Origin: Deltaproteobacteria bacterium
GTDB taxonomy: Bacteria; Myxococcota; SpSt-1050; JACRCP01
Reading direction: 5' to 3'
Length of the DNA: 64,000 nt
Assembly (NCBI GenBank): GCA_016218965.1
Contig: JACRCP010000248.1
Coordinates: 10,517 to 74,516 of the forward strand
Shown: positions 19,194 to 50,414 of the stretch, one piece after another
Position numbering within the stretch: the first letter of the stretch is position 1
How the letters are laid out: the number at the start of each line of letters is the position of its first letter
Made by a program: the position numbers and the translations under genes
The notes under the pieces: generated by a model
What the model was told of the DNA's origin: nothing
What the model saw: the letters and a program-made list of their open reading frames with translations, nothing else
The model's database searches: none

Positions 19194-20253
<1,060 letters not shown>

Positions 20254-20255
<2 letters not shown>

Positions 20256-20306
20256 AACAGGATTTGGGATTTAGAAATTAGAAATTTGGATTTGGAATTT
20301 TAGGAT
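20254..20306. repeat. AT-rich 'AAAACAGG-ATTTGGGATTTAG-AAATTAGAAATTTGGATTTGGAATTTTAGGAT' element between mreB and mreC (copy 1 of 2; see 60581-60625)
   Basis: Stands out in a ~68% GC background. A 13-mer ATTTGGGATTTAG and the flanking AAAACAG are shared with the inverted copy at 60581-60625. Confidence 0.6.
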
Positions 20307-20337
20307 CTGGGACATGCGAAACTGACGGCGGGCTTTC

Positions 20338-23746: not shown

Positions 23747-23754
23747 GAGAACGG

Positions 23755-33900: not shown

Positions 33901-36427
33901 GGTTCCAGCGGATCGTCCGACCGGCCCTGTCGAACGTCCCGCCGTCTTCGGGAACCACGTTTTCGAACCTGGAGTCGACCTGGTCGAGCACGTACGCCGC
34001 CTCGGCCACCCTGTTGCCGGAATTGGCGACCGTCACGACGAATCGAACCGCCTCTCCCGGGGCGATGGTCCTGCGCCGGTCGTCCGCGCCGAAGATGGCG
34101 GCCTTTTTTGATGTCGAGAAATCGGGCGCGACGGTCACGAACAGTTCGGCGCTCACGGTCTTGGATACCGAGCTGTCGGCGGGTGTGGTTATCACCGCTG
34201 TGTTCTTGATTTCGGTAGTGCCGGAGGGGAGTTGATTGACGATTCTCACCCTGTACTTGATCTCGGCGACCGCCCCGTGGCCGGCCAGGTCGAAGCCGTC
34301 GACAGTGAGCACGCCGCTCGTGAAATCCCATCGCGCACCCGGGGGGAGCGGACCGACGTCGAAGGTGTACTCGACGTACGGCGAAAAACGGTCGGTGACG
34401 ACGACGGGGACCGTGCGGTTTCCGGTGTTTCTTAGCGTGATGGAGTACTCGAGCGTGTCCCCGGGCGCGGGCGGGTTTGACGTCTTGTCGACAACCGCCT
34501 TGCTCGATGCCGAGAAATCCGGGGCGTATGTGAGCGTCACGACGGTCGGGTCAGCGCCCCCGGGCTTCGCGGGGTCGTCGGTGAGCATAGGCGACGCGAG
34601 CGCGGGGCCGGTGAGTGTCCCCTGGTTGCTCACCTGATAGCCGTGGATTTGCGTCCTCGAGCGCCACTGGTCGGCCGTGTCGATCTTGACGAGGAAGGTG
34701 AACGTCACGCTGAAGCGTTTCGGGACCGATATCCCCTCGATTGACACCTTGGATGCCGTGGACCGATCGGTCGAGCCGCCGGGCGGGTTGACCTTTGTGA
34801 CGGTGGTGTGCGCGGGCGCGTTGTCTTCGAATTTGAGCTCGTTGACGTCGTAGTCCGACTCGTTCTTCAGCGTGATCTCGTACTGGAGCGTGTCGCCCGG
34901 CTCGACAAAACCGCCGTTTAAGTCGGCGACCGTCTTCGTGATTGATTTTACCTCCGGGGCGCGGACGGTGGTCTTGACGGTATTGGTGTTGACCGGCTGG
35001 GTTTCATCCGACGAGATCCGGGCGCCGTTGGTGATCTCGGTGCCGCTTCGCCTGCCGGTCTTGATTCGGACCTGGAACTTGACCTTTTTTGCCGCCGTCC
35101 CGACCGCCAGATCGCCGATGTTGAGCCCCGACCCCACCGAGAGCGGGCACTGCCCTCCCCTTCCGTCGGCGGCCGGCACGTCGTCTACCGTCGTGCTCCC
35201 CGGGATGTAGTCGGTCCCGGCCGGGATGGTGTCGAAGACCTTCACGTTGTGGGCCAGAAGCGACCCCTCGTTCTTGACCCAGATCGTGTACGTGAGCGTC
35301 TCGCCGCCCCCGGCCACGACCTTGTCCACGTCCTTGACCGTCCCCGACCCGTGAAAGTCCGGGGCGTAGGTGTCGAGTGCGAGGACCATGTAACCAAGGA
35401 ATATGCTTTCGCCGCCCCCGGTGAGTGACAGCGGATCGCCGACATTGCCGTCACCGGAGCCGACTTGAATCGACGCGTTCGTCTGGCCGGACTGAAGGAT
35501 GTTCAACCCGCCGACTCCGACATTGAACGTGTCGATGTCCACTCCGACGCCGTCCACGGATTCGCCCTCGATCGTGCTGTTGAAAACGTTGTTCGGAGGA
35601 TTGGCGGTGTCGGTGAGTTTCACGCTGTTCAACGAGAGGAAATCATTGCACGTCTCGCAGTAGAGGGGATGATCTTTCGGAAGCTGTTTCTGGAAAGGTT
35701 CGCCCAACTGATCGTCCCCTTCGAGCCCGAAATACGCAAACTCCGCATAGGCGGGGTTTCCGACTGTGAATCCTCCTATGCTCATTGGCGACGAGATGCC
35801 GGTGCGGTCGTCTTCGTCCACGTGATAGAACCCGTCGTAGATCACAACGTCGCGGTACTTCCTCTGGCTCTCCGCACTCCAGACAACGACGAGCGACCAC
35901 CCGGCGTAACGGGCCTGGCACCAGACGTCCGTGTCGCACGAGGCCGAGATCCTCGCGTCAACGTTTCCCACCGTGTACAGACCCGACAACGTGGGAAGCC
36001 CCGTCAGCAGGTCAGTGACGCGTTTCCTGCAGTAGAAGAAGGAGCCTTTGTCCCCGGTGTCGACTTGGTAGCAGGTGTCCGCGACCAACGAGGCGTGTGT
36101 AGGCGAATTCGGCGGTGTGAAGTCGGCGGTCGGGCTCGAGTAGATGTTTTTCGACCCGGACCAGAACAGCCAGGCCTCAACGAGTTTGCCGTCGGCCGGG
36201 ATCGAGGTTATCGGGGCCGTTTTTTCCGGAAGCAGGACGCAGTTGAAACGCCCGGATTCGATCGGGCACCACTGGGTGAGAGTCGCCCCGGTCTTGGCCA
36301 CCGAGCCGAGGAGCCGGTTGACGGTATAGAGTGGGGCCGGCGGGTAGCCGTCGACCGTCGCGCGCGCCTCGGGGGAGGCGGCCAGCGCCAAGAGGAGGAA
36401 CAGGCATGAAACGAGGCGTCTTTTCAC
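24986..36427 (-). CDS. Giant secreted protein (~3810 aa): N-terminal unique domain, ~20 DUF11/CARDB-like 'conserved repeat' modules, SdrD-B/CnaB-like and Big domains, and a C-terminal ~900-aa region with beta-barrel character
   Basis: Signal peptide (LLLALAASPEARA). Repeated '...PDFS.SK......G..L.Y.I...N.G...A..V...D.L' modules. 'FCDSNGNGAQDPGE' is SdrD-B-like. The C-terminus has alternating hydrophobic strands and ends '...GFFVRLTGQY' (terminal aromatic). Confidence 0.8.
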   Translation of the reverse strand: MKRRLVSCLFLLLALAASPEARATVDGYPPAPLYTVNRLLGSVAKTGATLTQWCPIESGRFNCVLLPEKTAPITSIPADGKLVEAWLFWSGSKNIYSSPTADFTPPNSPTHASLVADTCYQVDTGDKGSFFYCRKRVTDLLTGLPTLSGLYTVGNVDARISASCDTDVWCQARYAGWSLVVVWSAESQRKYRDVVIYDGFYHVDEDDRTGISSPMSIGGFTVGNPAYAEFAYFGLEGDDQLGEPFQKQLPKDHPLYCETCNDFLSLNSVKLTDTANPPNNVFNSTIEGESVDGVGVDIDTFNVGVGGLNILQSGQTNASIQVGSGDGNVGDPLSLTGGGESIFLGYMVLALDTYAPDFHGSGTVKDVDKVVAGGGETLTYTIWVKNEGSLLAHNVKVFDTIPAGTDYIPGSTTVDDVPAADGRGGQCPLSVGSGLNIGDLAVGTAAKKVKFQVRIKTGRRSGTEITNGARISSDETQPVNTNTVKTTVRAPEVKSITKTVADLNGGFVEPGDTLQYEITLKNESDYDVNELKFEDNAPAHTTVTKVNPPGGSTDRSTASKVSIEGISVPKRFSVTFTFLVKIDTADQWRSRTQIHGYQVSNQGTLTGPALASPMLTDDPAKPGGADPTVVTLTYAPDFSASSKAVVDKTSNPPAPGDTLEYSITLRNTGNRTVPVVVTDRFSPYVEYTFDVGPLPPGARWDFTSGVLTVDGFDLAGHGAVAEIKYRVRIVNQLPSGTTEIKNTAVITTPADSSVSKTVSAELFVTVAPDFSTSKKAAIFGADDRRRTIAPGEAVRFVVTVANSGNRVAEAAYVLDQVDSRFENVVPEDGGTFDRAGRTIRWNLGDMAPAAQKAVAFTARAKTPLDSGLKIFNQAFVYSKEVITGVPTDDPATSAADDPVTLAVTFPYDFSGSAKAVQGDTGGVVKAGDLLTFTVTVVNASPGGLNDLLVVDTVDRGLSDVSVQAGTYNTITRAVNWTVPRLDFGRSVALTFTARVLPPTRPGSFVENFATVTGGGASLKTNTVRLAVVEQPGFTASTKVATPDGSFANRTHKFQAGSKVIWLVTATNTGTVAATNVTITDAVDTQNLVNITVRDGGQIAGGVITWTVPSIGIGAFWTVSFEADVRTPIKNGTTIRNQASIVCAENQYPANSDDPDTVTPADPTIVTVESAPDFILSRKTASVGGSPAASLKPGDTVTFEITAVNTGNAEATGVVIEDTVDTSRLTVQTYPGGTFDGKKVRYSIPSLGVGAQNAAKVSFAALVRQCVSGQVENLAHISAAEVPNGFNTPKIVLPVSGAGAGGTFEKRASFALTPVRPGDRVEYSVAFTPKDQVKLCGAKLSDVVDSNLEDVQVSAGTYDPATRTVSFLPAAGADGGVGAFAYTFGAKVKKPLKDGTVVSNQAVLSASNLGAPFSSDDPATPAAADPTVFKVASTAFVYATKQADRPQAPPGGTVSYTITLTNIGDAIAEGGTLRDDISSIAGFLDAATPLDGGTYDPAGHVLSWTLPPLGLSPPNTYTYRFNARLKTGIPDGTEIANQAVAKGSNFVDAYSDADGDPKNGYQPTVVTVLNKPVFSSSTKLPYTATGAAIPADQEVSPGDQIVFKIEVKNTGTIDAHDVTVTDLVDSTNLAGVIPASGGAFDGARISWGPAQTPALKLIPSGGKTALSFACSVAASAAPGTKISNQAAVESSEGVKDVTDDPRTPAKSDATTLVVRSAASPDLSASAKAAAPSRSPLRSGDRIRYSITVKNVGRTDATGTTLTDLIDPQTSRYVAGSTTLNGRPIADSRGGKFPLEAGLKVTSASFGAMPGADEGRIVPWDGRGSDDELAVVTFEVTVLPGAQVVKNKARIDRDGGQPVWTNETVVPVGDVPFIPALAKTWFLKTDANANGVADKGDVVEFVLSFENAGAAAAGDVALRDPLSDRVSYVPGSMMVQRDGGAMVALTDAADGDQGRFDAADGVRGSVRLLLSDLGPGGRVRFAFDVTVGECGGFANQATLTYGGGVSVLSDADGDAGNGAQETVVPTCGGEQIFLSAAKDAADLNGGSLMPGDQVLYTLTLLNQGSGDLEAVTLEDDIPAHTTFKNDPKNYTVPQDAVLSFLPAPSGRYTRGKLVVTKLTIPRAASPADAVKLSFLVTADKDAVRGDQVKNAAVVYSPKFKQTTNTVSLIVGGTEGTAMVKGRVFQKRDTKETQFSEGKDIPLRGYTVAVDQETGSSRSAAPRPAGPASPGKRTARVLVDAAGSFEVANLAPGRYRLTVYSQNGVPFAGIAGIDLKEGDVHRSDMAIVPAGVIYDARSGEPIENATVVYYPDGASGLSLPSQKVPKELRVQKTDWTGMYAAELPAGGAYRIEVSGPSPSMIFPSGTYPPIAGYAKAAADGYVSTDFSERSRGAPYYLRVDSGKDEFVLKNNRIPLDRAESAFRIEKNVSKPEAARGDILTYTVTVQNLSSKAFRPSGAARTGGVSIHDYLPSGLRFIQNSARLYRAVNGKEKADTTVDAAGAAEISFGAISIGASETVRLRYEAVVGLEAKTGVLNNRARLYIEGRAVDVDASAPVRVVEDPIFDQGLLIGKVFCDSNGNGAQDPGEDGLGGARVFMDTGWYSDVDETGKYHFKGIPAGYHLVKLDVATLPPGSLPTGEVVKGLNFTPGLPAKVNFGVDCRLKKFAAARVDRTSEKVPGRTEPGPDAGAAPHETDWAEYGSRLTTDDAGTPTHDQRLTTRDGGALPDSSFNAGLPTPDAGLQPPAYSPQPSEDRSLATWVELPPPGYVARHEFLTFRGGTTPGNTVIVGSQAVPVREDGSFYATVKLAPGKNLVEVTAEDPAGHRSRVSYTIEYDPERVFVLALGEGIAGMGGLDLDGVSTASSLRVWNGVNWPGMLFHGRGVLYVKGMAHRRATFENIEYTLHFDTAKQRELAHEYFKEAYNPERYYPVYGDSASEVQDVNARDKLYLLVKADDSRLLVGNFVSDLRGVELLRYNRAFYGVDADLNRAAFDGNLGNRVKGFVSQDYDEIAHDRLVLRPTGGSVLYLRNGAVIEGSDRVDLVVRDKDSGLDVLRRTLARDIDYSMGYGEGRIILKQPVSATADSFSPLLGPGRQLAGHPVFLEVDYDYSAILAGGNRAYGARVEETVFKMLRLGGGYVKEEAKGREAYSIWGADAVLSVGKTAALKAEFAQSRSFDSTVYFSDDGGLSFISSGGGILPQNGIGGSAWMFEAQGDVGEALGKDGRRLALKAYAQDMDPGFSAGTSVLQQGMLKYGFDSSKTLPGDMELRFKGDALSVSIPPQPLTESAGAREMSFDKYSAYGSWQKKLGPWKVLAEDNYIYFRDNIVAPEEVHTDIAGAGLSYALSRRWELFGAQQGVMGGDPKLYDSFADRMFSTVGARYTIREGLVVGASETARWSGDNATQLGLKVPLSDSGTGSAYVNEKLGSWNGQFVTSSVLGAEDQGIPGTRTYGEYQVDSVSSNAMNRSVFGLNNRWPIAKGTYFNLDFEHTQVLGGAAYISSTDTALGAIPLSSSPYTAYGRPNQAAFAGDSRSPLQGRQAGLKSDESALSAGALVPYYGLNYPLGMMEGDAARDVFAVGLEFLRYEFFKIGTRLELRFDNADEHWNGQDRFQYLATLGSTWRFTRDLSFLAKLSVSDTQNQRYERREAAFMEASFGFALRPVNFDWINLIFKYSRLYEFRNFDVTADDAAQEIYSDIFSLIPIVETPFRLQIVEKLALKHAVSQSYAQPWTAVNMVLWINRLNFHLWKERIDLGAEYRVLVLLDLEKKDGYLAEVAIIPAKNIRFGVGYNFSSFSDNLYESLNHDASGFFVRLTGQY
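28186..28345. repeat. ~160 nt in 7-nt register inside the giant ORF: (GGCTNNA)x4, spacer, then (GAGTCGT)x7 (revcomp TCACGAC); copy 1 of a composite element also present at 52941-53012
   Basis: Read directly: 'ggctgta ggctgga ggctgga gtccggc atcagga ... gagtcgt gagtcgt tggtcgt gagtcgg ... cggtcgt gagtcga'. On the minus strand it encodes a low-complexity linker (..THDQRLTTRDGGALPDSSFNAGLPTPDAGLQPP..). Confidence 0.55.
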
Positions 36428-36488: not shown

Positions 36489-37283
36489 ATGGTAGGCCAT
36501 CTCAGGTATTACTACAGACAGCGCCATCTGCTCAAGGTGTTCGTGGTAAACGACCTCCGGAGCCGGTTCTCGGGCTCCGCCATGGGCATCTACTGGTCGG
36601 TCTTAAATCCCCTCCTGCTCATCCTGATCTACACGTTCGTCTTCTCCGAGATCCTGAAGGTCGAGTTCCACAAGGACACGGGCAACGTGAACTTTGCACT
36701 GTATCTTGTGTGCGGACTCCTCCCGTGGCTCGCGGTGCAGGACTCGATCCAGCGCTCCACGCCCTCGATTGTCGACAACGCGAACCTCATCAAGAAACCT
36801 GGGTTCCCGGCGAGCCTCCTCCCGATTCACATCGTTATCTCGAACCTTGTCACCGAGGCGATCGGGCTGGTCGCCCTCATTGTGCTCGTCGGGGTCACCG
36901 GCGAGGGCGTGGGGCTCAAGACCCTTGCCCTGCCCGTGATATTCATTCCGCAGATCCTTCTCACGTTCGGGGCCTGCTGGGCGCTCGCGAGTCTCCAGGT
37001 GCTCTTCCGGGACATCGCGCCGCTTTTGAGCTCGTTTATGATGCTCTGGATGTTCCTGACGCCCATATTCTACCCAAGCGCAATCTTCCCGCGGCACCTC
37101 GGTTTCCTGATGGTCGTCAACCCCATGGCGCACCTCGTGGACATCTACCGCGAGCTCATCATGAAGGACGCATGGCCCGCGGCCGGGTCGGTGGTCACGC
37201 TGTTTGTGCTTTCGGCAGCCGTGTTCCTGGCCGGCTACGCCATCTACGTCCGCCTGCAACCCAAGTTTTCGGACCTCGTCTGA
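36489..37283 (+). CDS. wzm: ABC-2 type polysaccharide/O-antigen export permease (Wzm/TagG/KpsM family)
   Basis: 264 aa with 6 TM helices and an ABC-2 signature; ATGA-coupled to the downstream ATPase. Confidence 0.85.
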   Translation: MVGHLRYYYRQRHLLKVFVVNDLRSRFSGSAMGIYWSVLNPLLLILIYTFVFSEILKVEFHKDTGNVNFALYLVCGLLPWLAVQDSIQRSTPSIVDNANLIKKPGFPASLLPIHIVISNLVTEAIGLVALIVLVGVTGEGVGLKTLALPVIFIPQILLTFGACWALASLQVLFRDIAPLLSSFMMLWMFLTPIFYPSAIFPRHLGFLMVVNPMAHLVDIYRELIMKDAWPAAGSVVTLFVLSAAVFLAGYAIYVRLQPKFSDLV

Positions 37284-38473
37284 TGAACGCGGTCGAAGCC
37301 AAGAGTCTCTCGAAAGTCTACCGGCTGTACCCCAATCCGCGGCAGCTCCTGGTGGAGTACCTGACGTTTCGGCGGCGCCGGACCCATGCGGAGTTTTGGG
37401 CGCTCAAGGACATCACGTTTTCGGTCCCGCGCGGAGGGGTGTTCGGGTTAATCGGCGACAACGGCGCGGGCAAGAGCACCCTTCTCCGCGTCCTCGCCGG
37501 CGCCACCCAGCCGACCTCCGGGACACTCGTCGTCGAGAGCCCTTCGGCCTCGCTCATCGACCTCGGCACGGGGTTCAAACCCGATTTCACGGGGCGTGAC
37601 AACGTGCGCCTGAATTGCGCGCTCCTCGGCTTCAACGCGCGTCAGACCGAGGAGGCACTCCAGGACATTGTGGCGTTTTCGGAACTCGGGAAGTTCATCG
37701 ACTATCCCCTTCAGACGTACTCATCGGGGATGATCATGCGCCTGGGGTTCGCCGTTGCGGCAAGCGTCCCTTCGCGCGTGATCTTCATAGACGAGGTCAT
37801 CGCGGTCGGCGACAACTACTTCCAGCACAAGTGCATCGACCGCCTCTCGGCGCTCCAGCGCGACGGCCGCACAATCGTGTTCGCCACCCACAACCTTCAC
37901 GCCGTCAAGACCATGTGCCACCAGGTGATGTGGCTCAAAAGCGGCGTGTGCGAGGCGCTGGGCCCCGCCGAGGATGTCGTGGCGCGCTATAGCGACTACA
38001 CGCGCGCGCGGGACGGATGCGCCGCCGAAGAGCAGCACGCGGTGACCCACCAGTCCAGGCATGTTTCGGTCCTCGGGGTGCGCGTGGTGGGGGCGGACGG
38101 GCGCGAGGCGGCGGAGTTCGAGACGGGACAGCGCGTCGCCGTCGAGGTGGATTTCCGCGCCGACGCCCCGGTTGTCGACCCCGCGTTCGGCGTTGCGATC
38201 CACCGGAACGACGGCGTCTACTGCTTCGGACCGAACACGGCGTGGGACAAGGTGCTCTACGGTGAGTACTGCGGCGACTACCGGCTCTCGATCACGTACC
38301 CCGCGCTCCCCCTGCTGGCCGGGAGCTACCTGGTGTCGGTGGGCATCTTCGACCGGGAACACGTCGTCCCGTACGTGTACCACGACCGGATGTACGGTTT
38401 CGCCGTTCGAACCTCCCGTCCGGAATACGGCATGGTTCTGATCGAGCACGAGTGGGGGATCCGAAAACTGTGA
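37283..38473 (+). CDS. wzt: ABC transporter ATP-binding protein (Wzt/TagH family) with C-terminal substrate-binding beta-sandwich extension
   Basis: Walker A (GDNGAGKST), signature (YSSGM) and Walker B (IFIDEV), plus a ~150-aa C-terminal domain typical of Wzt proteins that recognise a terminally modified glycan. The track ORF from 36710 is a spurious extension. Confidence 0.85.
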   Translation: MNAVEAKSLSKVYRLYPNPRQLLVEYLTFRRRRTHAEFWALKDITFSVPRGGVFGLIGDNGAGKSTLLRVLAGATQPTSGTLVVESPSASLIDLGTGFKPDFTGRDNVRLNCALLGFNARQTEEALQDIVAFSELGKFIDYPLQTYSSGMIMRLGFAVAASVPSRVIFIDEVIAVGDNYFQHKCIDRLSALQRDGRTIVFATHNLHAVKTMCHQVMWLKSGVCEALGPAEDVVARYSDYTRARDGCAAEEQHAVTHQSRHVSVLGVRVVGADGREAAEFETGQRVAVEVDFRADAPVVDPAFGVAIHRNDGVYCFGPNTAWDKVLYGEYCGDYRLSITYPALPLLAGSYLVSVGIFDREHVVPYVYHDRMYGFAVRTSRPEYGMVLIEHEWGIRKL

Positions 38474-39396
38474 CGACGCGCCGAATCGGAATAGACCTCA
38501 CCGCAGTCTGCAATCTGCGCTGCACGATGTGCGCCCTCGACCGGTTTCACCCGTCGCGGGGGGTCCTCGATTTTTCGCTCCTTGGCGAAATCGCGGCCGG
38601 CCTGTCTTTTTTCGACGAGGTTCACGTAGGGTGGTGCGGCGAGCCGCTCATGCACCCCCGATTCGCCGAGGCGGCGGCGCTTCTCAAACGCGCCGGTCCG
38701 CGGCTGGTGGTGACGACCAACGGCACGCTCCTCGACCCGGGCACCGCGGACGCGCTGGTCGACGCCCGCCTCGATGTCTTGAACGTTTCGATCGACGGCT
38801 CCACGCCCGAGCGTTACTCGCGAATCCGCCGGGGCGGCGACCTGCGGGCGGTGCTTTCGAACGTGCGGACGTACCTTGCGCGGCGGAAGCCCGGGCAGTG
38901 CGTGAACATGATCTCGACGGTCCATGCGGAAAACGTCGACGACATGGAAGACCTCGCGCGCCTCGCCCGCGACACGGGGTTCGACGCGATGGCGTTTAAT
39001 TTCGCCGTCCCGCACTTTTCGGAGATCGTGTCCTCGGACAGCGGGACGTTCGACGCGGCCCGCGCCGTCGGGCGGGCGCGCGAAGCCGCGGGGGCTTTTG
39101 CAGATCGGGTAGTCGCCCCGTCGTTTTCGGCCTCTCGGGGATGCGCGTATCTCACGCCCGCGATCACCCCCGAAGGGGACCTGGTACCGTGCGCCATGAT
39201 GCTGTTCGAGCGCGACACGTTCTATCGGGGGCGGGCGGTGCGCGTCGCGCGGCGTTCGTTCGGAAACGTCGGCGCCGTCCCGCTCTTGCGAATCATCGAG
39301 TCGCCGGACTATCTGGCGTTTGTCGGGACTGCGCGCGCGTCCAGCGCGGATTCGTGCGGACCGTGCGCGCTCAACGCGGGCTGTTTCTGCCCGTGA
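38452..39396 (+). CDS. Radical SAM enzyme with C-terminal SPASM-type Cys cluster (rSAM #1)
   Basis: CxxxCxxC (CNLRCTMC) near the N-terminus and a C-terminal CGPCALNAGCFC cluster. The start is ATG 38452 or GTG 38470, both overlapping the wzt stop. Confidence 0.8.
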   Translation: MGDPKTVTTRRIGIDLTAVCNLRCTMCALDRFHPSRGVLDFSLLGEIAAGLSFFDEVHVGWCGEPLMHPRFAEAAALLKRAGPRLVVTTNGTLLDPGTADALVDARLDVLNVSIDGSTPERYSRIRRGGDLRAVLSNVRTYLARRKPGQCVNMISTVHAENVDDMEDLARLARDTGFDAMAFNFAVPHFSEIVSSDSGTFDAARAVGRAREAAGAFADRVVAPSFSASRGCAYLTPAITPEGDLVPCAMMLFERDTFYRGRAVRVARRSFGNVGAVPLLRIIESPDYLAFVGTARASSADSCGPCALNAGCFCP

Positions 39397-39410
39397 GAAG
39401 GGAGAGCGAA

Positions 39411-40319
39411 ATGCTCAAGACCAATGAGGTGCGGCTCGTCATCCAGTCGGTCATCGGCGAAGTGACCTCGCCGCGGGTGCGCACGCCCCCGTACCGCGTG
39501 AGCACCGAAGGCGTTCCGGTGGTGCTCCCGGGGACCGGAGGGATAACGTTCAACGTGCGCGTGGGGGACCCGGCGTTCGGGTGGGCCGCCGACCACGTCG
39601 AACCCGGGGTCTCGGCCCGGAACCGCGAAAGCAAGGAGGGGTACGGCCCGGAGAACGAGGGGTTCAACTGCCTGTCCTGCGTGGGGAACGAGGCGGTCGT
39701 TGTGACCGGCGGGGCCAAGGGCGAAAAGGGGCGTGTCACCGGGAAGCACGGCGGGATCGAGCACGTCCTGATTGATTTCGGCTGGAAAGTCCTTGACAGG
39801 ATGGTCGTGGGCGACAAGATCCAGGTGCGCGCGCACGGCCAGGGGCTCAAGATCCTGGACCAACCCGCGGTCACCGTGATGAACCTCGACCCCGGTCTCC
39901 TGCACCTGATGGGGTGCCGGGTTGACGCAAGGCGGAACCTGCACGTGCCGGTCGTATGCCGCGTCCCGCCGGTGTTGATGGGGTCCGGCGTCGGCTCGAC
40001 TTCGGCGTACAGCGGCGACTACGACATCACGACGGCCGACAAGGCCCTGATCTCGCACCTTGGCATAGACAAGCTGCGGTTCGGCGACATCGTGGCGATA
40101 GACGACCATGACAGCAGCTACGGCCGGGCGTTCAGGCGCGGGGCCGTCACCATCGGCGCCGTGATCCACTCCGACTGCGTCCTCGCCGGGCACGGTCCCG
40201 GCGTAACTGCCCTGATGACGTCGAAAGAGGGGAAGATCGTGCCCGAACTGCACCCCGCGGCCAACATCGCGAGGTACCTGGGGCTGCGAAAGGACGTGTT
40301 CGGGAGGAAACCGCGCTGA
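39411..40319 (+). CDS. Conserved hypothetical protein (possibly DUF4438-like), ~300 aa
   Basis: Strong RBS (GAAGGGAGAG) 6 nt upstream of the ATG. Gly-rich and soluble, with no recognisable catalytic motif; the family assignment is from memory only. Confidence 0.65.
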   Translation: MLKTNEVRLVIQSVIGEVTSPRVRTPPYRVSTEGVPVVLPGTGGITFNVRVGDPAFGWAADHVEPGVSARNRESKEGYGPENEGFNCLSCVGNEAVVVTGGAKGEKGRVTGKHGGIEHVLIDFGWKVLDRMVVGDKIQVRAHGQGLKILDQPAVTVMNLDPGLLHLMGCRVDARRNLHVPVVCRVPPVLMGSGVGSTSAYSGDYDITTADKALISHLGIDKLRFGDIVAIDDHDSSYGRAFRRGAVTIGAVIHSDCVLAGHGPGVTALMTSKEGKIVPELHPAANIARYLGLRKDVFGRKPR

Positions 40320-40438
40320 ACCTGACCACCGACTACGTCGAGCGGCGCCGACGGCTCGAGCGCGCCCATTTCGAGGTCCTGCGCAAGTGCACGGACGGGT
40401 CGCTCCATTCGGGATTTCTCCCTCTGGTCCATTTCGTC

Positions 40439-41266
40439 GTGCACCAGGTCTTCAGATCGCGCCGGCTCATGCGGGCCGGCGTCCGGAACCTCCTGAACAT
40501 CCGCACCCGAAGGGTTTCGCTTGCGCCCCCGGGACTTCCACGGGCGTTTGACGGGTTTTCCATCCTGCTCCTCTCGGACATGCACCTCGGGTCGATCCCC
40601 GAGCTCGGGCCGGCTGTCGTCCGGGTGATAGAGGGTCTTCGCGCCGACGTCTGCGTGTTCGCCGGCGACTTCCGCCTTTATGCGCACCAGAGCGGCCCGA
40701 CGTTCGAAACGGACCTGCGCCGGATCGTCGATGCGGTCCGCGCACCGGCGGGCCTGTACGGCGTCCTCGGGAACCACGACACGATTGACGACGCGCGCCT
40801 TGCAGATTGCCTGGGAATCAGAATGCTCGTCAACGAGGCCGTGTCGATCCGGCGGGACGGCGCGACCATCCGTCTCGCCGGGGTCGACGACCCCCACACG
40901 TACCGGCTTGACGACCTTGACCGCGCTCTCGCCGGCGCCCCGAAGGGGGCTTTCACGGTCCTTGCCGCACACACATCCGAGATCGCCGCCGACGCGGCGC
41001 ACAAGGGCGTCGGCCTTTACCTGTGCGGTCACACGCACGGGGGGCAGATCTGTCTTCCCGGGGGCGTGCCCCTGCTGGTCTCGACCCGGTCGCCGCGGGC
41101 GTACGCCTGCGGCGAATGGGACCTGCGCGGAATGAAAGGCTATACGAGCGCCGGGGTCGGGGCGTCCATCGTTCCGGCCCGGTTCAACTGCCCCGGGGAG
41201 GTTGTCACAATCGAAATGAGGGCTAAAAGCAGTCGGACTCGCCCAGCTCGTACCAGTTGCCCTTGA
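40439..41266 (+). CDS. Calcineurin-like metallophosphoesterase
   Basis: Motifs D.H (SDMHLG), GD (FAGDF), GNHD (LGNHD), and GH.H (CGHTHGG). The N-terminus may extend upstream, since the frame is open back to 40319. Confidence 0.75.
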   Translation: MHQVFRSRRLMRAGVRNLLNIRTRRVSLAPPGLPRAFDGFSILLLSDMHLGSIPELGPAVVRVIEGLRADVCVFAGDFRLYAHQSGPTFETDLRRIVDAVRAPAGLYGVLGNHDTIDDARLADCLGIRMLVNEAVSIRRDGATIRLAGVDDPHTYRLDDLDRALAGAPKGAFTVLAAHTSEIAADAAHKGVGLYLCGHTHGGQICLPGGVPLLVSTRSPRAYACGEWDLRGMKGYTSAGVGASIVPARFNCPGEVVTIEMRAKSSRTRPARTSCP

Positions 41267-41405
41267 GCGGCGGCTCGGCCTTCGGGGCCTTCGGGGCCTT
41301 CCCGGCGGCTTTTGCCTTGTGGGCATCTTCCTCTGAGAGCTGGTATTTCTTGAGGACGTCGGGCGGAATCTTGTAGAGCTTCCCCTCGATGACCGTGTAT
41401 TTTTC
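41223..41405 (-). CDS. Candidate independently translated small peptide (61 aa), in-frame with rSAM #2: MEKYTVIEGKLYKIPPDVLKKYQLSEEDAHKAKAAGKAPKAPKAEPPLKGNWYELGESDCF
   Basis: Has its own Shine-Dalgarno: AGGAGGG is 9 nt upstream of the ATG on the minus strand. It lies beyond the end of the SPASM domain. It contains K/A/P repeats and a single Cys at the C-terminus. Confidence 0.3.
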   Translation of the reverse strand, partial: EKYTVIEGKLYKIPPDVLKKYQLSEEDAHKAKAAGKAPKAPKAEPPLKGNWYELGESDCF

Positions 41406-42341
41406 CATTCGTCCGTTCCCTCCTGCGTTCGCCGTACGCACTATATCATATGCCCGCGCAAAGGCCAATTTCAGACGGCACTGCGGCCCTTGTCTCTTTG
41501 ACCCCAACTTGGGGACGCATCGCGTACAATCCCGGAGAGCCGGGCAACGGCTGCACGCCGCCGAATCGACGATCAGGCGCGCGGCATTCGAAACCGGGCT
41601 TCGGTGGCAGGGGAGCACCGTCCCGTCGGGTTCGATGGTCATGGTATCCACGCCCGGATTGCAGGCCGCCGCCCTCCCCTCGCGCGCGCGTTCGAAATCG
41701 GACACGCGCGGGAGGACGCCGGTTTTTACCCCTCTTTCGTATTCCGCGGCCAATGCGCACAGCGAGCCGTCGAGGCGTTGAATCGGGCGGGGACCCCATC
41801 GGATGTTTGCCGCGGGGGCGATTCCCAGTTGCGTAACGCCGATCCCCGCGAGGTACAGCGCGTCGTCCCGGACGTGTCCCGCGGAGGCGGGCGTCACGGT
41901 CATCCGGACTGCCGTCGGCACGCCCGCCTTTGACAGCAACTCGAAGGCCCGAACGACCCTTGCATGCGTCGGAGACCCGCCGGCCGCCCTCCTGTGCCGG
42001 TCGTGCGTTTCGGTCTTGCCGTCGAGCGCAAGGGACACGGAGATGCCGTTTCGCGAAAGGAACCCGGCGGTCCCGGCATCGAGCAAGGTCCCGTTGGTGT
42101 TGAGCGTGAAAGCGCATTCCGGGTGCGCCAAAACCGCGGCGCGCAGCAGTTCGAAACGGAGCAGCGGCTCCCCGCCGAAGAAGACGACATCCCTCTTCCC
42201 GCGCGGGACGCGTTCGACAAGCGTGTCGAAAGAACGGATCATCGCCCGCCGGTCGGTTCTCCGCACGCGCCCGCCGCGGCCTGCGTAGCAATACCCGCAA
42301 CGGAGATTGCACGCGCCCGTGAGCTTGAGAACGATTCTCAT
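41223..42341 (-). CDS. Radical SAM/SPASM enzyme (rSAM #2) carrying an in-frame 61-aa C-terminal extension
   Basis: CxxxCxxC (CNLRCGYC) and a SPASM cluster (CSRCPALRDCTRC...C). The ATG overlaps the stop of the upstream GT2 gene (ATGA). The ORF reads through 'GGNGR' into the peptide-like tail with no stop. Confidence 0.75.
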   Translation of the reverse strand: MRIVLKLTGACNLRCGYCYAGRGGRVRRTDRRAMIRSFDTLVERVPRGKRDVVFFGGEPLLRFELLRAAVLAHPECAFTLNTNGTLLDAGTAGFLSRNGISVSLALDGKTETHDRHRRAAGGSPTHARVVRAFELLSKAGVPTAVRMTVTPASAGHVRDDALYLAGIGVTQLGIAPAANIRWGPRPIQRLDGSLCALAAEYERGVKTGVLPRVSDFERAREGRAAACNPGVDTMTIEPDGTVLPCHRSPVSNAARLIVDSAACSRCPALRDCTRCVPKLGSKRQGPQCRLKLAFARAYDIVRTANAGGNGRMEKYTVIEGKLYKIPPDVLKKYQLSEEDAHKAKAAGKAPKAPKAEPPLKGNWYELGESDCF

Positions 42342-43111
42342 CTCCCGCCACCGACCGCCCACCGCCCGCCGCCAAGCCGTGCGAGCCTGCCCGATCTCAC
42401 CCACTTCTCGAGAAACCGTTCCTTTCCCTTAATTCGTATCTCGAGGTCGTCGGGGCGGAGCCCAAAGCTCGCGGACTCCTCATGGATGAAGACGGCCGAG
42501 GGCTCGTACACGCTCGACCAACCGGCCTCGACGAAACGCAGGCCCATGTCGCAGTCATCGTACATTCCGAACCCGAAGCCCTCGTCAAGGCCCCCCAGTT
42601 CCCGAAAAGGCGCCGTCCGCAGAAGGATCGCCGCGTACGTGATCATGTCAAGCTCCCGGGGCTCCAGGACCTCCGGGGCGTGGCGGGTGAAGTATCGGTA
42701 CCTGTGGACGGGAATCCCTTCGCTCCCGATCTCGATCCCCGCGTGCGCCACCGTAATGCCGTCCGGAAACAGGAGCAGCGCGCCGACCGCTGCCGCCCGG
42801 GCGCGCTCGTCGAGCGCTCGGGACATAGCGGTGTCCCATCCGCCGAAGGGCACGACGTCGGAATTGAGAAGGAAGAAACGGTCAGATTGGACCAGCGACG
42901 CACCGCGGTTTGCCGCCGCGGGGAACCCGAGGTTTCGCTCGTGCACAACCGCGCGAACCCCATGCCTTCGTGAGCAGCCCCGGACAAGCTCGCGCGTCGC
43001 CGCATCCGGGGACGCATCGTCGACCAGGATCACATCGTGTCCGCGGAGATGCCCGAGCAGGCGTGCGAGGCCGGGGGCGTTGCCGTACACGGGGATGACT
43101 ACTTCAGCCAC
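42338..43111 (-). CDS. Family 2 glycosyltransferase
   Basis: GT-A fold motifs: VILVDDAS, DxD-like (NSDVV) and a C-terminal acceptor region. Overlaps both flanking rSAM genes. Confidence 0.85.
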   Translation of the reverse strand: MAEVVIPVYGNAPGLARLLGHLRGHDVILVDDASPDAATRELVRGCSRRHGVRAVVHERNLGFPAAANRGASLVQSDRFFLLNSDVVPFGGWDTAMSRALDERARAAAVGALLLFPDGITVAHAGIEIGSEGIPVHRYRYFTRHAPEVLEPRELDMITYAAILLRTAPFRELGGLDEGFGFGMYDDCDMGLRFVEAGWSSVYEPSAVFIHEESASFGLRPDDLEIRIKGKERFLEKWVRSGRLARLGGGRWAVGGGR

Positions 43112-44022
43112 GGGGCGTGCTCCGGCGCAAGGTACGAAAGCGCGTAGGGTCCGTCAATGAAACACTCCGGTTTGAAGCACTCGGACTTGAGAGCGTCAAG
43201 GACGAGGCCGTCCCATCGCGCGGGGACTTCCCCGATCGGAAGCGCGAGTTCGTGCGAGTGGCAGAGCCTGAATTTCCCGTCGGGGTCCACGACGCCGGTC
43301 AGTCCCTTGCACGCGCAGGGCCTGTGTGCGCCCGTCCTCAAAAACCGCCCGATGGCCGCGGTGAAATCAAGGTTCCCTTTTGCGCGATCGGGAAGCCTGT
43401 TGAGCACGGTATCGAGATTGGCCACCTGCGCCGGCGTCCAGGAGACATCGGACTCCCCTCGAAAATACGAACCCCGGACAGCCGGCCGGAGCGCAACCTC
43501 GCAGTCATAGTACTCCGCGACCGCGGCGACATCCAGAAGCGCCTCCGCCCCGCCCGGCGCCACCGTGACCGACAGCCTCGGGCGCTTCCGGAAGTGGTCC
43601 CTGACAAAGAGGATCCCCCGGAGAACCTCGTCGTAGCTCCCCGTTTGCCCGTGGCGCGCGTCGTGGACGGGGGCAAAGCCGTCGAGCGAAAGGCAGACCA
43701 GAAGGTCGGGGTCGGCGCCGGCAAGCCTTTCGAGAACAGGCCGGGCCTGCCACGCGTTGGTGACGACCGCGCGCTCGTGCGCGCGCGGGAAACGCCCCCT
43801 CGCCCACGCGATCGCCTCGGCGAGCCTGGGAAAGAGCGTCGGCTCACCCCCGAACCAGTTCAGGTACTCGAGGCCGTCGAAGAACGGGTGCCCGAGGGCC
43901 TGTTTGATTCGGTCAAGGTCAAGGAATTCGGGGGGTGAAGGCGCCTGCTTCCAGATCGAACAGATGGTGCACCTGAGGTTGCACCGCCATGTCACCGCGA
44001 TACTAAGGAGCTTGAGCGCCAT
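43099..44022 (-). CDS. Radical SAM enzyme with C-terminal Cys-rich (SPASM/twitch-like) region (rSAM #3)
   Basis: CxxxCxxC (CNLRCTIC) and C-terminal cysteines (RPCACKG...RLCHSH...ECFKPEC). The start was chosen at MALKLL; the track ORF extends to 44052. Confidence 0.7.
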   Translation of the reverse strand: MALKLLSIAVTWRCNLRCTICSIWKQAPSPPEFLDLDRIKQALGHPFFDGLEYLNWFGGEPTLFPRLAEAIAWARGRFPRAHERAVVTNAWQARPVLERLAGADPDLLVCLSLDGFAPVHDARHGQTGSYDEVLRGILFVRDHFRKRPRLSVTVAPGGAEALLDVAAVAEYYDCEVALRPAVRGSYFRGESDVSWTPAQVANLDTVLNRLPDRAKGNLDFTAAIGRFLRTGAHRPCACKGLTGVVDPDGKFRLCHSHELALPIGEVPARWDGLVLDALKSECFKPECFIDGPYALSYLAPEHAPWLK

Positions 44023-44176
44023 CGACGCGGATTTTAGGGCGGTCCGCGTCATTTGGCAACGCTTCGGTCCGCGCCAACGGTCCGTTTCGACCAGCGAGTT
44101 CGCAGATCCTTCTCATTTGACACCACGGGTGCCTGTCTATAAGATCGGTTCCGACAGACGGCCAAGAAGGGCACCG

Positions 44177-44866
44177 ATGCTGAACAGCCTTGACGAAATC
44201 CGCGATCGCATTGTCCGGTCGTACGACCCGGAACGGATAATCCTTTTCGGGTCGTGGGCGCGGGGCGAGGCAGACGAAACTAGTGATGTCGATTTGCTGG
44301 TCATCAAGGACACCGCGGCCAGGCCGCTCGATCGCCGCTGCACCGTGGAAAAAATCCTTCTTGATAGAGACGTGCCGCTGGACCTTCTCGTCTACACGCC
44401 GGCAGAGGTCCGCTACCTGTATTCCATCGGGAGTCCGTTTATCGAAGACGTCATGGAAACCGGGAGGGTCCTGTACATGCGGAAGGCGACGGAAAGCTGG
44501 GTCGGGGACAGCGAAGAAGAGTTGAGAACCGCACAAGTGCTGATCGAACACGACAGATTCAGGGGCGTCTGTTACCACAGCCAGCAGTGCGTCGAGAAAG
44601 GACTCAAGGCGGCGATCATCGAGAAAGGCAGCCGTCCCGAAAAGACCCATGACGTTCTTGAGCTTCTGAAGGAGGCCCGCAACCTGGGGTTCGAGATCCC
44701 CCTTGAGATGGATGACGCGGTCTTCCTGAACAGCATCTACAAGGGAAGATACCCGACCGAAGAGGGCCTTCTCCCGCACGGCGACCCGTCGCGCGACGAC
44801 GCCGAGCGCGCGTTGCGCGCGGCGGACTCGTTTTTTTCAGCCCTGCGCTCGTCTTTCGGTTGTTAG
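44177..44866 (+). CDS. Fused nucleotidyltransferase (Pol-beta-like MNT) plus HEPN-domain protein
   Basis: N-terminal GS...D.D NTase motif (FGSWARGEADETSDVDLLV). The C-terminal helical domain has an Rx4-6H-like element (RPEKTHD). The architecture resembles fused MntA-HepT or kanamycin-nucleotidyltransferase-type proteins. Confidence 0.7.
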   Translation: MLNSLDEIRDRIVRSYDPERIILFGSWARGEADETSDVDLLVIKDTAARPLDRRCTVEKILLDRDVPLDLLVYTPAEVRYLYSIGSPFIEDVMETGRVLYMRKATESWVGDSEEELRTAQVLIEHDRFRGVCYHSQQCVEKGLKAAIIEKGSRPEKTHDVLELLKEARNLGFEIPLEMDDAVFLNSIYKGRYPTEEGLLPHGDPSRDDAERALRAADSFFSALRSSFGC

Positions 44867-44999: not shown

Positions 45000-46727
45000 A
45001 TGGCTGACAGCAGGGCCGACCTGGCCCGCATCGATCTGGCCGCATCGATCGATCAGAAGGACTTCACCGCGCTTCCGCTCCAGCGGAGGCTCGAGCTGCT
45101 CCCGTACCTGCCGCCGTCAAGAAGGCGCAACTACGTCCTGGCCTGCGAGGACTCGAAGGCCCTCGTTGAGGCCATGCAACCGCAGGACCTTTTCCTTACG
45201 ATCAAGGAGATCGGGCTCCACGACGCCGCCGAGATCGTGGGGCTTGCGAGCCCCGAGCAGTTCCAGAACTGCCTGGACCTCGACTGCTGGAACAGGGACG
45301 TGATCGACGCGGAGACCTCGTGGCAGTGGCTGACGGTCCTGTCGGAGGCGGGCCTGGACGTGCTCATGGGCAAGGTCGGCGCCCTCGACTTCGAGGTCGG
45401 GATCGCGCTCTTCGCGGAGCACGTCAAGGTGTACGTTGCGAAGGAGGATTTCGATCCGGACGAGGGCGTCCCGCCCGGGAGTTTCACGGCGGACGGTGTT
45501 TACCACCTCGTGATCGACGCGTCCCCGGACCGGGTCGAACTCATCGAGAAGATGGTGACAGACCTGTTCCACCGCGACTCGGATCTGTACCTCCGGCTGC
45601 TCAGCGCGGTCCGGGACGGGATGAACGCTCCTGTGCAGGAGGAGGCCCTCAGGTGGAGGACCGCGCGCCTTGCCGACCTCGGGTTCCCCGACTACGTCGA
45701 GTCGCTCAAGGTCTACTCGCGGCCCGACAAGAAAAAGGAGCGGCGCGACCTCCGCTCCGCGGTCCCCAAGGGCGACGTTCCCCCTTCGTTTGCCATCATC
45801 CGGCACGACGGCCTGTCGGTGGTCCCTCTCGACGCCGCGGCAAGGGTCGACTCCGACGACGCGGCGGCCGTGGCCGCGGGGGCCGCATACCTTGTGAACT
45901 GGCTCGCGGTCGCCGATCGGGTGGACCCCGGCGATGTGACGCAGGTTCGCGAGCTGATGGAAAAGGCGCGCGGGTACGTGTCGATCGGGCTGCACGAGAT
46001 TGGGGGTGATCCGGCCAGGACACTCGCTTCGACGCCGATGCTCGACATCTTCAGAACGGGATTTGCCAGGGCAAAGGACCTTGCCGACAGGGCAAAAAGG
46101 ATCGTCGCCGAGCACCCCCTCATCGCGGGAGACAAAAAGGCCCTCCGCCTCGACGAGGTGAGCCGCGAGACCGTAGCGGCCCTGCTCCAGCCCAGGCCCC
46201 TCCTCTACCTCGGCGCGGTCAAGGACGGTGCGGCGGGCATGGGGCATTTTTCGTCCGCGCATGACGTCGCCGCCATCTCCGGTCTTCTCGACAAGGTCGA
46301 CGCCTCGGCCGAGGTATTCGGGACGGTGCTCAAGATATTCAAGAAGGACCTCCTGGCCCTCGATCTCAAGGGGCTCAACGTCCCGATCCGCGACGATCTC
46401 ACCGTGAGCCGGGTGTTCAACACCGCGGTGGCGCAGAAGGCGCTGAAAGACGCCTTCGTCCTTGAGCCCGTCGCAGCCGGTGACCTCGCAAAACTCCACG
46501 GCCTTCTCTTCGTGCGGTCCGGAGACGGATGGGACATCGCGCCGTCGGCGGCTGAGACCGTCAAAGACATCATGGAAGTGGTCGAACGGAAGCGCCCCGA
46601 CCTCCGCCGGCCCGCCATGCAGTTCATGAACGCCTGCCTCGAGGACCTGCGCGACAGTCTCGCCCACGTGGACTTCTCGAAAGAGGTCAAACCCGACTTC
46701 ATCGGGTCGCTCATCATCAGGAAATGA
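45000..46727 (+). CDS. Hypothetical protein (575 aa, alpha-helical, no recognised motif; possibly a Myxococcota-restricted DUF)
   Basis: Long open frame with coding-like GC3 bias, ATGA-coupled to the downstream DUF72 gene. Confidence 0.65.
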   Translation: MADSRADLARIDLAASIDQKDFTALPLQRRLELLPYLPPSRRRNYVLACEDSKALVEAMQPQDLFLTIKEIGLHDAAEIVGLASPEQFQNCLDLDCWNRDVIDAETSWQWLTVLSEAGLDVLMGKVGALDFEVGIALFAEHVKVYVAKEDFDPDEGVPPGSFTADGVYHLVIDASPDRVELIEKMVTDLFHRDSDLYLRLLSAVRDGMNAPVQEEALRWRTARLADLGFPDYVESLKVYSRPDKKKERRDLRSAVPKGDVPPSFAIIRHDGLSVVPLDAAARVDSDDAAAVAAGAAYLVNWLAVADRVDPGDVTQVRELMEKARGYVSIGLHEIGGDPARTLASTPMLDIFRTGFARAKDLADRAKRIVAEHPLIAGDKKALRLDEVSRETVAALLQPRPLLYLGAVKDGAAGMGHFSSAHDVAAISGLLDKVDASAEVFGTVLKIFKKDLLALDLKGLNVPIRDDLTVSRVFNTAVAQKALKDAFVLEPVAAGDLAKLHGLLFVRSGDGWDIAPSAAETVKDIMEVVERKRPDLRRPAMQFMNACLEDLRDSLAHVDFSKEVKPDFIGSLIIRK

Positions 46728-47533: not shown

Positions 47534-47621
47534 GGTCCGCTGTTGGCGTGAGGTCCGCTTGCGCCCGGGGGCCGGGGCGTGTAGGCTGGCGCGGCCGTCG
47601 AGGGAGTCCTGGAGGGACCGA

Positions 47622-48620: not shown

Positions 48621-48623
48621 CAG

Positions 48624-48728
48624 GCATCCGCCTCCGCCATCCAACTTCGCCACGGTTTCGCCGAGCAAGAGGCTACGGCGGACGAGTGAGGCGCGAGGCA
48701 TGAGGCAGCAGGCGAAAGGCGGGAGGCG
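48624..48728. repeat. Copy B of the ~90-nt repeat, intergenic; its 3' heptamer tract (gaggcgc gaggcat gaggcag caggcga aaggcgg gaggcgg) provides the ATG and first codons of the downstream Omp85-like gene
   Basis: Direct comparison with copy A. The tandem 7-nt register is visible. Confidence 0.7.
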
Positions 48729-50319: not shown

Positions 50320-50414
50320 AGAAGGCAGGAGGCAGGAGGCGGAAGGTCGGGTGAATCGCGGGCCGATTGGTGGTATGATATCGGCCGTACCGGGACTCCT
50401 ACGGAGGGCGAGCC

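Follow-up and report, generated by a model that had tools for sequence, protein, structure and literature searches.

A radical-SAM enzyme gene with an in-frame precursor-type peptide inside a probably composite nine-gene region of an uncultured deltaproteobacterium

Does a row of nine genes that brings together an ABC exporter, three radical S-adenosylmethionine (radical-SAM) enzymes, a family 2 glycosyltransferase (GT2), a phosphoesterase and a nucleotidyltransferase-HEPN (NTase-HEPN) fusion encode one pathway, or does its meaning lie in a smaller unit? We addressed this question for positions 36489-44866 of a 64-kb stretch of DNA (the window, i.e. the whole stretch that was analysed), which belongs to an uncultured deltaproteobacterial genome assembled from a metagenome (locus tags HY897_; proteins MBI5527801 to MBI5527810). 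Gene calls were checked by frame analysis and domain searches (Pfam, NCBIfam). A preliminary description of the region, made from the sequence alone, had proposed a single accessory cluster acting either on the end of an exported glycan or on a glycosylated peptide resembling RiPPs (peptides of ribosomal synthesis with post-translational modifications). The reading that we favour, with a probability of roughly 60%, is that the region is a composite of modules and that its core is one self-contained gene, rSAM2, which would encode a PapB-like maturase together with its own precursor and would cross-link the single cysteine of that precursor.

The gene and the elements nested in it are arranged as follows:

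41223-42341, minus strand: rSAM2 with a 61-amino-acid tail, 372 amino acids in total; Pfam Radical_SAM 72.1 bits
41223-41408, minus strand: nested in-frame open reading frame (ORF) of the 61-amino-acid peptide, with its start ATG at 41406-41408
41226-41255, minus strand: codons of the peptide core WYELGESDCF at the extreme C-terminus
41419-41424, minus strand: internal Shine-Dalgarno (SD)-like AGGAGG inside the rSAM2 coding sequence, 10 nucleotides upstream of the peptide ATG

rSAM2 encodes a radical-SAM/SPASM-like enzyme (residues 1-311) that continues in frame into the 61-amino-acid peptide MEKYTVIEGKLYKIPPDVLKKYQLSEEDAHKAKAAGKAPKAPKAEPPLKGNWYELGESDCF, in which a hairpin and a helix resembling a leader are followed by a variable linker and then by an invariant core. 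The true start of the gene is the ATG at 42341, which overlaps the stop codon of the GT2 gene in an ATGA, and the product is identical to NCBI MBI5527806.1. A call of 393 amino acids starting at 42404 found no match in an exact look-up, because the true start lies 21 codons downstream. In public records this gene is named "radical SAM protein" only and the peptide has been missed.

A search of 5.8 billion proteins with rSAM2 retrieved six close homologues with 36-69% identity, followed by a sharp drop to generic SPASM enzymes. In each of the six the tail is present in frame and begins with an invariant methionine; they also share the N-terminal tail motif VIxGKxYxIPxxVLKKY as well as the end EPPxKGNWYELGESDC[YF]. 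Distant relatives whose enzyme parts are only 23-31% identical also carry an in-frame tail. Through motif scans of genomes and metagenomes a low-GC group was found as well, whose assemblies bear the labels Bdellovibrio sp., Myxococcota and Deltaproteobacteria. The enzyme part of this group is only 23-26% identical, yet the proteins end in NFYELGESDCY. The proteins of a further lineage end in GLWYEIGESDCY. Throughout the family the C-terminus is near-invariant ([WF]YE[LI]GESDC[YF]): the residues Y, E, G, E, S, D and C of the core are the same in all members examined, the enzyme parts of which are 23-69% identical, and the leucine is replaced by isoleucine in P0137. Leader motif, variable linker and invariant core, the layout of a RiPP precursor, are apparent in the alignments of the tail (A3 and A5). 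A profile search with the tail alone among 1.84 billion representative proteins yielded about ten true members and nothing else convincing, and an NCBIfam scan of the tail matched no family. Six close homologues and about ten profile members in databases of this size therefore define a very rare peptide family of roughly 20 distinct loci. Where the context is known, the peptide is always located inside or beside a PapB-like radical-SAM gene.

How could a peptide that forms the end of an enzyme become available on its own? An SD-like 5-mer is located 4-18 nucleotides upstream of the tail methionine in 11 of 11 loci, which cover all fused clades, and the amino acids encoded at this site differ (AGGNGR, TGGREA, SERNNS, KAGGGS, LRRSG, NRRSE and others). 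When the same test was applied to other codons of the same ORFs, it was positive at 1.4-8.4% of positions. As at least four independent lineages are represented, chance is an unlikely explanation for the recurrence of the motif. Since SD motif and methionine precede the peptide in every one of these loci against such a low background, a free peptide is probably made in addition to the tethered enzyme-peptide.

About 15 loci have the peptide as an in-frame fusion to the enzyme, and at least two loci have it as a separate gene. In locus L020 a peptide of 62 amino acids is encoded by a gene of its own, which possesses a separate AT-rich intergenic region and a ribosome-binding site (AGGAG). P0126 and P0139 are similar to it and are probably stand-alone, too. 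In L010 (1742-3010) a radical-SAM gene, a cysteine-rich SPASM-like segment and the peptide lie in one frame, in which two stop codons occur (TGA at 2597, TAG at 2783). The upstream radical-SAM gene of this locus is PapB-like and a second PapB-like radical-SAM gene overlaps the end of the peptide. Possible interpretations are a true split or the decay of a former fusion. That these stops are recoded was rejected as a simple explanation, since one is TGA and the other TAG. The segment between both stops is G/T-rich and low in GC. In addition, there is a weak similarity between the peptide leader and the C-terminal end of the second radical-SAM protein (hhalign, 19 columns, E = 0.024), which is to be read as a hint only. 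Two further candidates for stand-alone peptides did not hold up: for P0121 the contig ends while the frame is still open in the upstream direction, and in the case of P0122 a fused gene has its frame interrupted by an N-gap located before the peptide.

Regarding the enzyme part, the best NCBIfam match of rSAM2 is PapB (NF047865) with 135 bits, compared with a curated cut-off of 340 bits. In all clades the enzyme matches PapB best among the NCBIfam families, with scores of 54-229 bits that never reach this cut-off, and QhpD, SCIFF and other peptide maturases rank after it. Among solved structures, CteB, anSME, ChlB and SkfB are nearest in sequence and fold, with CteB as the top fold match. The enzyme starts directly at the radical-SAM core. 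Although Pfam SPASM (PF13186) is not matched, seven cysteines (C248, C266, C284, C287, C293, C296 and C309, with a Cx2Cx5Cx2C spacing) are invariant in the alignment of the close homologues (A1). The reference for a SPASM domain is a seven-cysteine pattern of Cx9-15Gx4C, Cx2Cx5Cx3C and a last C. The homologue P0001, present in the two loci L003 and L009, carries an insertion of 59 amino acids in the SPASM region, located after the Cx2Cx5Cx2C block and before the last cysteine; it is not an assembly error, because it occurs in two independent samples. The preliminary description had remarked on the lack of a RiPP recognition element (RRE), and accordingly neither rSAM2 nor any other cluster protein matched PF05402. 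A maturase lacking this domain would be plausibly explained if recognition comes from the tethering of the substrate by the in-frame fusion or from the structured leader. In an AlphaFold2 model of rSAM2 (mean predicted local distance difference test score, pLDDT, 83.8) the catalytic core is confident and the leader of the tail forms a hairpin and helices (pLDDT 64-75). The last 21 residues are disordered, as expected for a substrate.

Fusion, conserved start and model together also bear on the idea that the tail is a built-in part of the enzyme which is never released. It would then act as an auto-inhibitory pseudo-substrate, as an iron-sulfur ligand through its cysteine or as a protein-derived cofactor, and the true substrate would be a different one. 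The maintenance of the fusion without a stop codon over a very deep divergence and the lack of a protease or exporter conserved nearby are in line with this idea. Moreover, the auxiliary cluster of CteB-type enzymes has an open site that binds a cysteine. Nevertheless, we consider a permanently built-in tail quite improbable. Stand-alone peptide genes occur in L020, L010 and probably P0126 and P0139, a ribosome-binding site and a methionine are conserved at the start of the tail, and the tail is laid out in the manner typical of precursor peptides (leader, variable linker, invariant core); furthermore, the core is disordered in the AlphaFold2 model and not packed on the enzyme.

If the tail is a substrate, which modification would it receive? 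PapB joins the sulfur of a cysteine to the carbon alpha to the carboxylate of aspartate or glutamate and can also use a C-terminal residue (PMC12373016). As compared with the PapB-type maturases and the related QhpD and CteB, the enzyme has a radical-SAM core and, by alignment, a seven-cysteine SPASM-like region. The predicted substrate presents the groups that PapB joins, a cysteine near aspartate and glutamate and a free C-terminal carboxylate (PMC12373016): the core offers one cysteine, one aspartate, two glutamates and a carboxylate exactly one residue past the cysteine. Because of the PapB chemistry and the residues offered by the invariant core, a single thioether cross-link is our best guess. 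There are also differences from PapB. The substrate has one cysteine rather than repeated CxxxD units, its acidic residues are N-terminal to the cysteine, the precursor lies inside the reading frame of the enzyme, and in place of a variable core there is one that stays the same in distant lineages. The RiPP-like interpretation given earlier for the whole region holds for rSAM2 and its tail, a conserved precursor-type peptide that stands alone elsewhere and an enzyme nearest to thioether maturases; for all nine genes it is weak.

We propose the following sequence of events. Full-length translation from the ATG at 42341, coupled to the GT2 stop codon, would produce an enzyme with a C-terminally tethered peptide, and ribosomes that also initiate at the internal AGGAGG-N10-ATG (41408) would provide the free 61-amino-acid peptide. 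The first 25 residues or so of the peptide, comprising a beta-hairpin and a helix with the motif VIxGKxYxIPxxVLKKY, may serve as the recognition element in place of an RRE domain. The enzyme would then link the sole cysteine of the core to a carbon next to a carboxylate, resulting in a thioether; candidates for the link partner, counted from the cysteine, are Asp-1, Glu-3, Glu-6 or the C-terminal aromatic residue. The product would be released by a protease encoded elsewhere. The genes rSAM3 and GT2 would represent an independent module that was placed upstream of rSAM2 in this lineage and may add tailoring, and wzm-wzt-(rSAM1)-DUF4438-phosphoesterase a lineage-specific neighbouring operon. 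Of this scheme, the fusion and its conservation, the internal SD motif with its methionine, the split versions, the affinities of the families and the independence of the modules are seen directly in the data; internal initiation, the role of the peptide as substrate, the thioether chemistry and the release of the product are inferred.

Parts of this design are known from other systems. Borosins were first described in fungi. As in OphMA-type borosins, a single polypeptide contains both enzyme and substrate and ends with the core, and fused as well as split versions occur. However, the borosin enzyme is a SAM-dependent N-methyltransferase and not a radical-SAM enzyme, and to our knowledge no internal translation start has been reported for borosins. 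The existence of both fused and split borosins is documented in two reports (PMC7878506; bioRxiv 10.1101/2021.12.24.474128). An internal start is described for Cas11b, a small protein produced from cas8b by internal in-frame translation (PMC11899642). The similarity lies in a conserved ribosome-binding site and start codon in the same frame, which lead to a long and a short product. Cas11b is a structural subunit, whereas the short product here would be a substrate, the initiation of which we infer from the sequence only. Natural fusions of a radical-SAM enzyme with its precursor were not found in the literature searched, the coverage of which was incomplete, so that their absence from it is no proof.

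Is rSAM2 then part of a larger pathway formed with its neighbours? The other genes are:

36489-37283, plus strand: wzm, ABC-2 permease; Pfam ABC2_membrane 54 bits; NCBI MBI5527801.1
37283-38473, plus strand: wzt; ABC_tran 65 bits and Wzt_C 78.8 bits (cut-off 30.4); NCBI MBI5527802.1
38452-39396, plus strand: rSAM1; Pfam Radical_SAM 80.5 bits and SPASM 24.8 bits (cut-off 21.5)
39411-40319, plus strand: DUF4438 protein of the TM1086 family; PF14505 188.7 bits and PF20999 165.2 bits
40316-41266, plus strand: metallophosphoesterase; best NCBIfam match YaeI-like, 73.7 bits; CTG start probable
42338-43111, minus strand: GT2 glycosyltransferase; Pfam Glycos_transf_2 56 bits
43099-44052, minus strand: rSAM3; Pfam Radical_SAM 55 bits
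44177-44866, plus strand: NTase-HEPN fusion, 229 amino acids; Pfam HEPN 80 bits and NTP_transf_2 40 bits
45000-46727 and 46724-47533, plus strand: DUF6178 and DUF72 genes (Pfam), outside the region 36489-44866

Much of the preliminary description was borne out at this level. All nine genes are real and located where they had been placed, both Pfam domains of DUF4438 are present in the protein for which this family had been suspected, and the convergent 3' overlap of the two operons, given as about 44 nucleotides, is exact (41223-41266). The statement that the gene set is not a described pathway agrees with the NCBIfam results, as no protein reaches the curated cut-off of any family. Overlapping ATGA or GTGA codons at almost every junction were not found as a general rule; the junctions comprise overlaps of 1, 22, 4, 13 and 4 nucleotides and one gap of 14 nucleotides, and an ATGA is present between GT2 and rSAM2. 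The three radical-SAM enzymes carry the motifs CNLRCTMC (rSAM1), CNLRCGYC (rSAM2) and CNLRCTIC (rSAM3) and all exceed the PF04055 cut-off of 29.5 bits. All three had been called SPASM-type, which applies to rSAM1 according to Pfam and to rSAM2 by the alignment pattern only. In rSAM3 only Gx4C plus Cx4C are present, a partial SPASM/twitch pattern. The phosphoesterase probably starts at the CTG at 40316, overlapping the DUF4438 stop codon, because the 40 residues preceding the first listed start are also conserved in L003. Its last 14 codons (...SRTRPARTSCP) are antisense to the DNA encoding the peptide core (41223-41266), and the same phosphoesterase tail is found in L003. The end of the gene on the other strand may therefore be determined by constraint on the peptide. 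In scans for Rfam families and tRNAs nothing relevant was detected inside the cluster; a tRNA-Arg (CCG) at 644-720 on the plus strand was the sole structured RNA detected in the window.

The comparison with related loci separates the neighbours into modules, with the rSAM2-tail gene as the sole component found in all lineages. In relatives of intermediate GC content (L001, L002 and L012) this gene is located between rodA and the DUF6178-DUF72 pair. L001 and L012 share this synteny with the window and lack the other cluster genes. The window keeps the same frame, with the cell-shape operon mreB-mreC-mreD-pbp2-rodA at 19194-24852 on the plus strand and DUF6178-DUF72 at 45000-47533. As rodA directly adjoins the rSAM-tail gene in the mid-GC relatives, it marks the ancestral position of this gene, and because the window shares both borders, the other genes appear to have been inserted on both sides of an ancestral single gene. 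Downstream of DUF72, at 47559-52940 on the plus strand, the window encodes a deacetylase of the PIG-L type, a protein whose weak match to POTRA is below threshold and an 853-amino-acid protein without Pfam match; the same position in the mid-GC relatives is occupied by an isochorismatase gene, a thioredoxin-reductase-like gene and an RlmN/Cfr-like radical-SAM gene. In the low-GC group the sole constant neighbour is a convergent gene for a cysteine-rich lipoprotein without Pfam domain. This lipoprotein (L005-L008; in L006 at 11002-11994 on the minus strand) has about 350 amino acids, its gene overlaps the rSAM-tail gene by 7 nucleotides, and it is 73-81% identical across the four loci. A further locus, L023, has nothing in common with the neighbourhood in the window.

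The closest relatives, L003 and L009, in which Wzm is 94% identical, retain GT2 (83% identical in L003), rSAM2 with its tail, the phosphoesterase, DUF4438, wzt and wzm. They lack rSAM1, and wzt directly abuts DUF4438. In the window the best NCBIfam match of rSAM1 is W_rSAM_matur with 133 bits at a cut-off of 380 bits. In L018 the phosphoesterase is missing and DUF4438 converges directly on the rSAM2-tail gene. DUF4438 is a neighbour of this gene in the window, L003, L009 and L018. The DUF4438 protein matches Thermotoga maritima TM1086 (PDB 3dcl and 3n99; E = 2e-89) despite the large phylogenetic distance. No paper on DUF4438 was found in the literature searched, and there was no match to it in plasmids. 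rSAM3 has only nine homologues among 5.8 billion proteins, and the rSAM3-GT2 pair recurs on long contigs in L021 (rSAM3 67-69% identical) and L022 (60-61%) without the peptide, the exporter or other cluster genes. A second precursor peptide was not found near the pair in L022.

These gene orders show that the co-location of the three radical-SAM genes within 8.4 kb is recent rather than ancestral. The preliminary description had itself named radical-SAM genes scattered in other genomes, away from this neighbourhood, as a finding that would refute its reading, and rSAM3 (with GT2) and rSAM2 do occur elsewhere in this way. The one-pathway idea, in line with the RiPP reading of the preliminary description, holds that all eight biosynthetic and export genes cooperate and that the peptide is modified by rSAM2 and rSAM3 (and rSAM1 if present), glycosylated by GT2 and exported through Wzm/Wzt, with DUF4438 and the phosphoesterase helping in processing and Wzt_C recognizing the glycosylated end. 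This is unlikely in our view but deserves consideration. It is consistent with the tight coupling of rSAM3-GT2-rSAM2 by overlaps of 13 and 4 nucleotides, with the 44-nucleotide convergence of the operons and with the genes gained on both flanks of the ancestral gene in this lineage. Moreover, GT2, DUF4438, wzt and wzm also flank the rSAM2-tail gene in L003, L009 and L018, and GT2 is nearest to the mycofactocin glycosyltransferase MftF (81 bits, compared with at most 36 bits for other GT2 families and a cut-off of 280 bits for MftF). However, the peptide gene occurs alone in clades B and C and in L023, where the partners are absent within 10 kb, the rSAM3-GT2 pair occurs without the peptide, and close relatives can do without rSAM1 or without the phosphoesterase. 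The relatives sharing the cluster are nearly the same organism, so their conserved order is not independent. Furthermore, apart from a terminal phenylalanine in place of tyrosine, the core has no lineage-specific change that would reflect tailoring. With rSAM1 missing from the nearest relative and rSAM3-GT2 behaving as an independent module, the case for the nine genes as one pathway is weak. The translational coupling of rSAM3-GT2-rSAM2 leaves room for a lineage-specific tailoring, while a single nine-gene pathway is not established.

The last gene of the row, NTase-HEPN, was not found in any related locus. It matches MntA with 35.9 bits, below the 60-bit cut-off, and both domains are fused in one protein; an assignment to the type VII HEPN-MNT toxin-antitoxin systems was thus not obtained. 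It is probably an unrelated toxin-antitoxin or defence-type gene. A near-consensus sigma-70 promoter-like element (TTGACA-N17-TATAAG) is located at 44118-44146 on the plus strand, about 30 nucleotides upstream of its start.

The exporter raises the question whether the cluster instead serves a glycan. The exported molecule could be a polysaccharide or a glycolipid, with radical-SAM chemistry and the phosphoesterase acting on its end, and the peptide tail would then be incidental. As in ABC-dependent O-antigen export, ABC2_membrane, ABC_tran and Wzt_C are all present: the exporter consists of an ABC-2 permease and an ATPase, and the C-terminal extension of Wzt pointed out in the preliminary description is indeed a Wzt_C domain. 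GT2, a YaeI/LpxG-like phosphoesterase and a giant surface protein next door also fit a glycan cluster. The latter, a secreted protein of 3813 amino acids at 24986-36427 on the minus strand, has at least nine DUF11 repeats as well as DUF7507, SdrD_B and CARDB-like domains. Its gene is divergent from wzm, and the same pairing is seen in L003, L009 and L019. A second giant surface-type protein of 2481 amino acids with PKD, invasin D3, Big_1 and CBM96 domains is encoded at 11718-19163 on the plus strand. Unlike in O-antigen loci, no genes for polymerizing glycosyltransferases, chain-terminating enzymes or sugar nucleotides were found among the genes scanned across the 64-kb window, and both Wzm and Wzt score far below the curated NCBIfam cut-offs of the galactan and teichoic-acid exporter families. 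In addition, rSAM2 belongs to a group of peptide maturases and bears a conserved peptide, and the nearest relative retains the exporter yet lacks rSAM1. Beyond Wzt_C, the proposed modification of a glycan end thus found no positive support, and we regard it as very improbable.

Several observations weigh against a self-contained maturase-precursor gene as the core of the region. The enzyme remains below the PapB cut-off in every clade, so its chemistry could differ. In PapA, the substrate of PapB, the carboxylate residue is C-terminal to the cysteine, whereas here this is the case for the terminal residue alone, and the AlphaFold2 model does not dock the core peptide into the active site of rSAM2. 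The SD-like motifs fall in Gly-Gly or Arg-Arg codons and were possibly kept for reasons of the protein linker; L023 has just the 4-mer GGAG at this position and P0136 has no methionine at the start of the tail. No protease or dedicated transporter is conserved with the rSAM-tail gene. Finally, the coupling of rSAM3-GT2-rSAM2 and the gain of genes on both flanks also fit a growing biosynthetic cluster, so that functional links may be stronger than a composite would suggest, and as the clade-A relatives are so close to the window, a shared gene order is weak evidence either way.

What might the peptide be for? One idea is that the core is the precursor of a new peptide-derived cofactor or signal, comparable to pyrroloquinoline quinone (PQQ) or mycofactocin, for which a single gene with enzyme and substrate in one reading frame would suffice; the internal start would then control how much of the peptide is tethered and how much is free. 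We consider this distinctly unlikely in its specific form. As for the general role, a housekeeping molecule fits better than an antibiotic, because the core is invariant while the enzymes of distant members are only 23-31% identical and because most lineages have no linked exporter, immunity gene or protease. Similar to mycofactocin and PQQ, there is a strongly conserved C-terminus of a small peptide together with a SPASM-like radical-SAM enzyme, and an MftF-like GT2 adjoins; the Glu-x3-aromatic spacing at the end of the peptide recalls PqqA. In contrast to these systems, GT2 travels with rSAM3 and not with the peptide, the terminal residue is phenylalanine in this lineage, and besides the low score against MftF, rSAM3 reaches only 32 bits against MftC at a cut-off of 265 bits, so that the genes do not qualify as members of the mycofactocin families. 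Equivalents of MftA, MftB, MftD, MftE, PqqB, PqqC and PqqD were not detected in the cluster by the NCBIfam scan.

Taken together, the notable feature of this locus is narrower than first proposed and is real: one rare gene joins a probable maturase to its probable precursor, which has an invariant core and a start signal nested in the longer frame. The nine-gene set is mostly a recent juxtaposition and should not be taken as one pathway without expression or genetic data. Among known systems, PapB-type thioether RiPPs come nearest to its probable mode of action, with an enzyme score below the curated PapB cut-off. If our reading is true, this would be the first natural example, to the extent of our searches, of a radical-SAM peptide maturase encoded in frame with its precursor, and it would be a radical-SAM counterpart of the borosin design with a nested internal start that could supply extra free substrate. 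It would also explain how a maturase without RRE finds its peptide, and it would offer a compact one-gene system for enzymology and peptide engineering. For the uncultured deltaproteobacterial lineages concerned, it would mean that they produce a strictly conserved peptide with a modified C-terminus.

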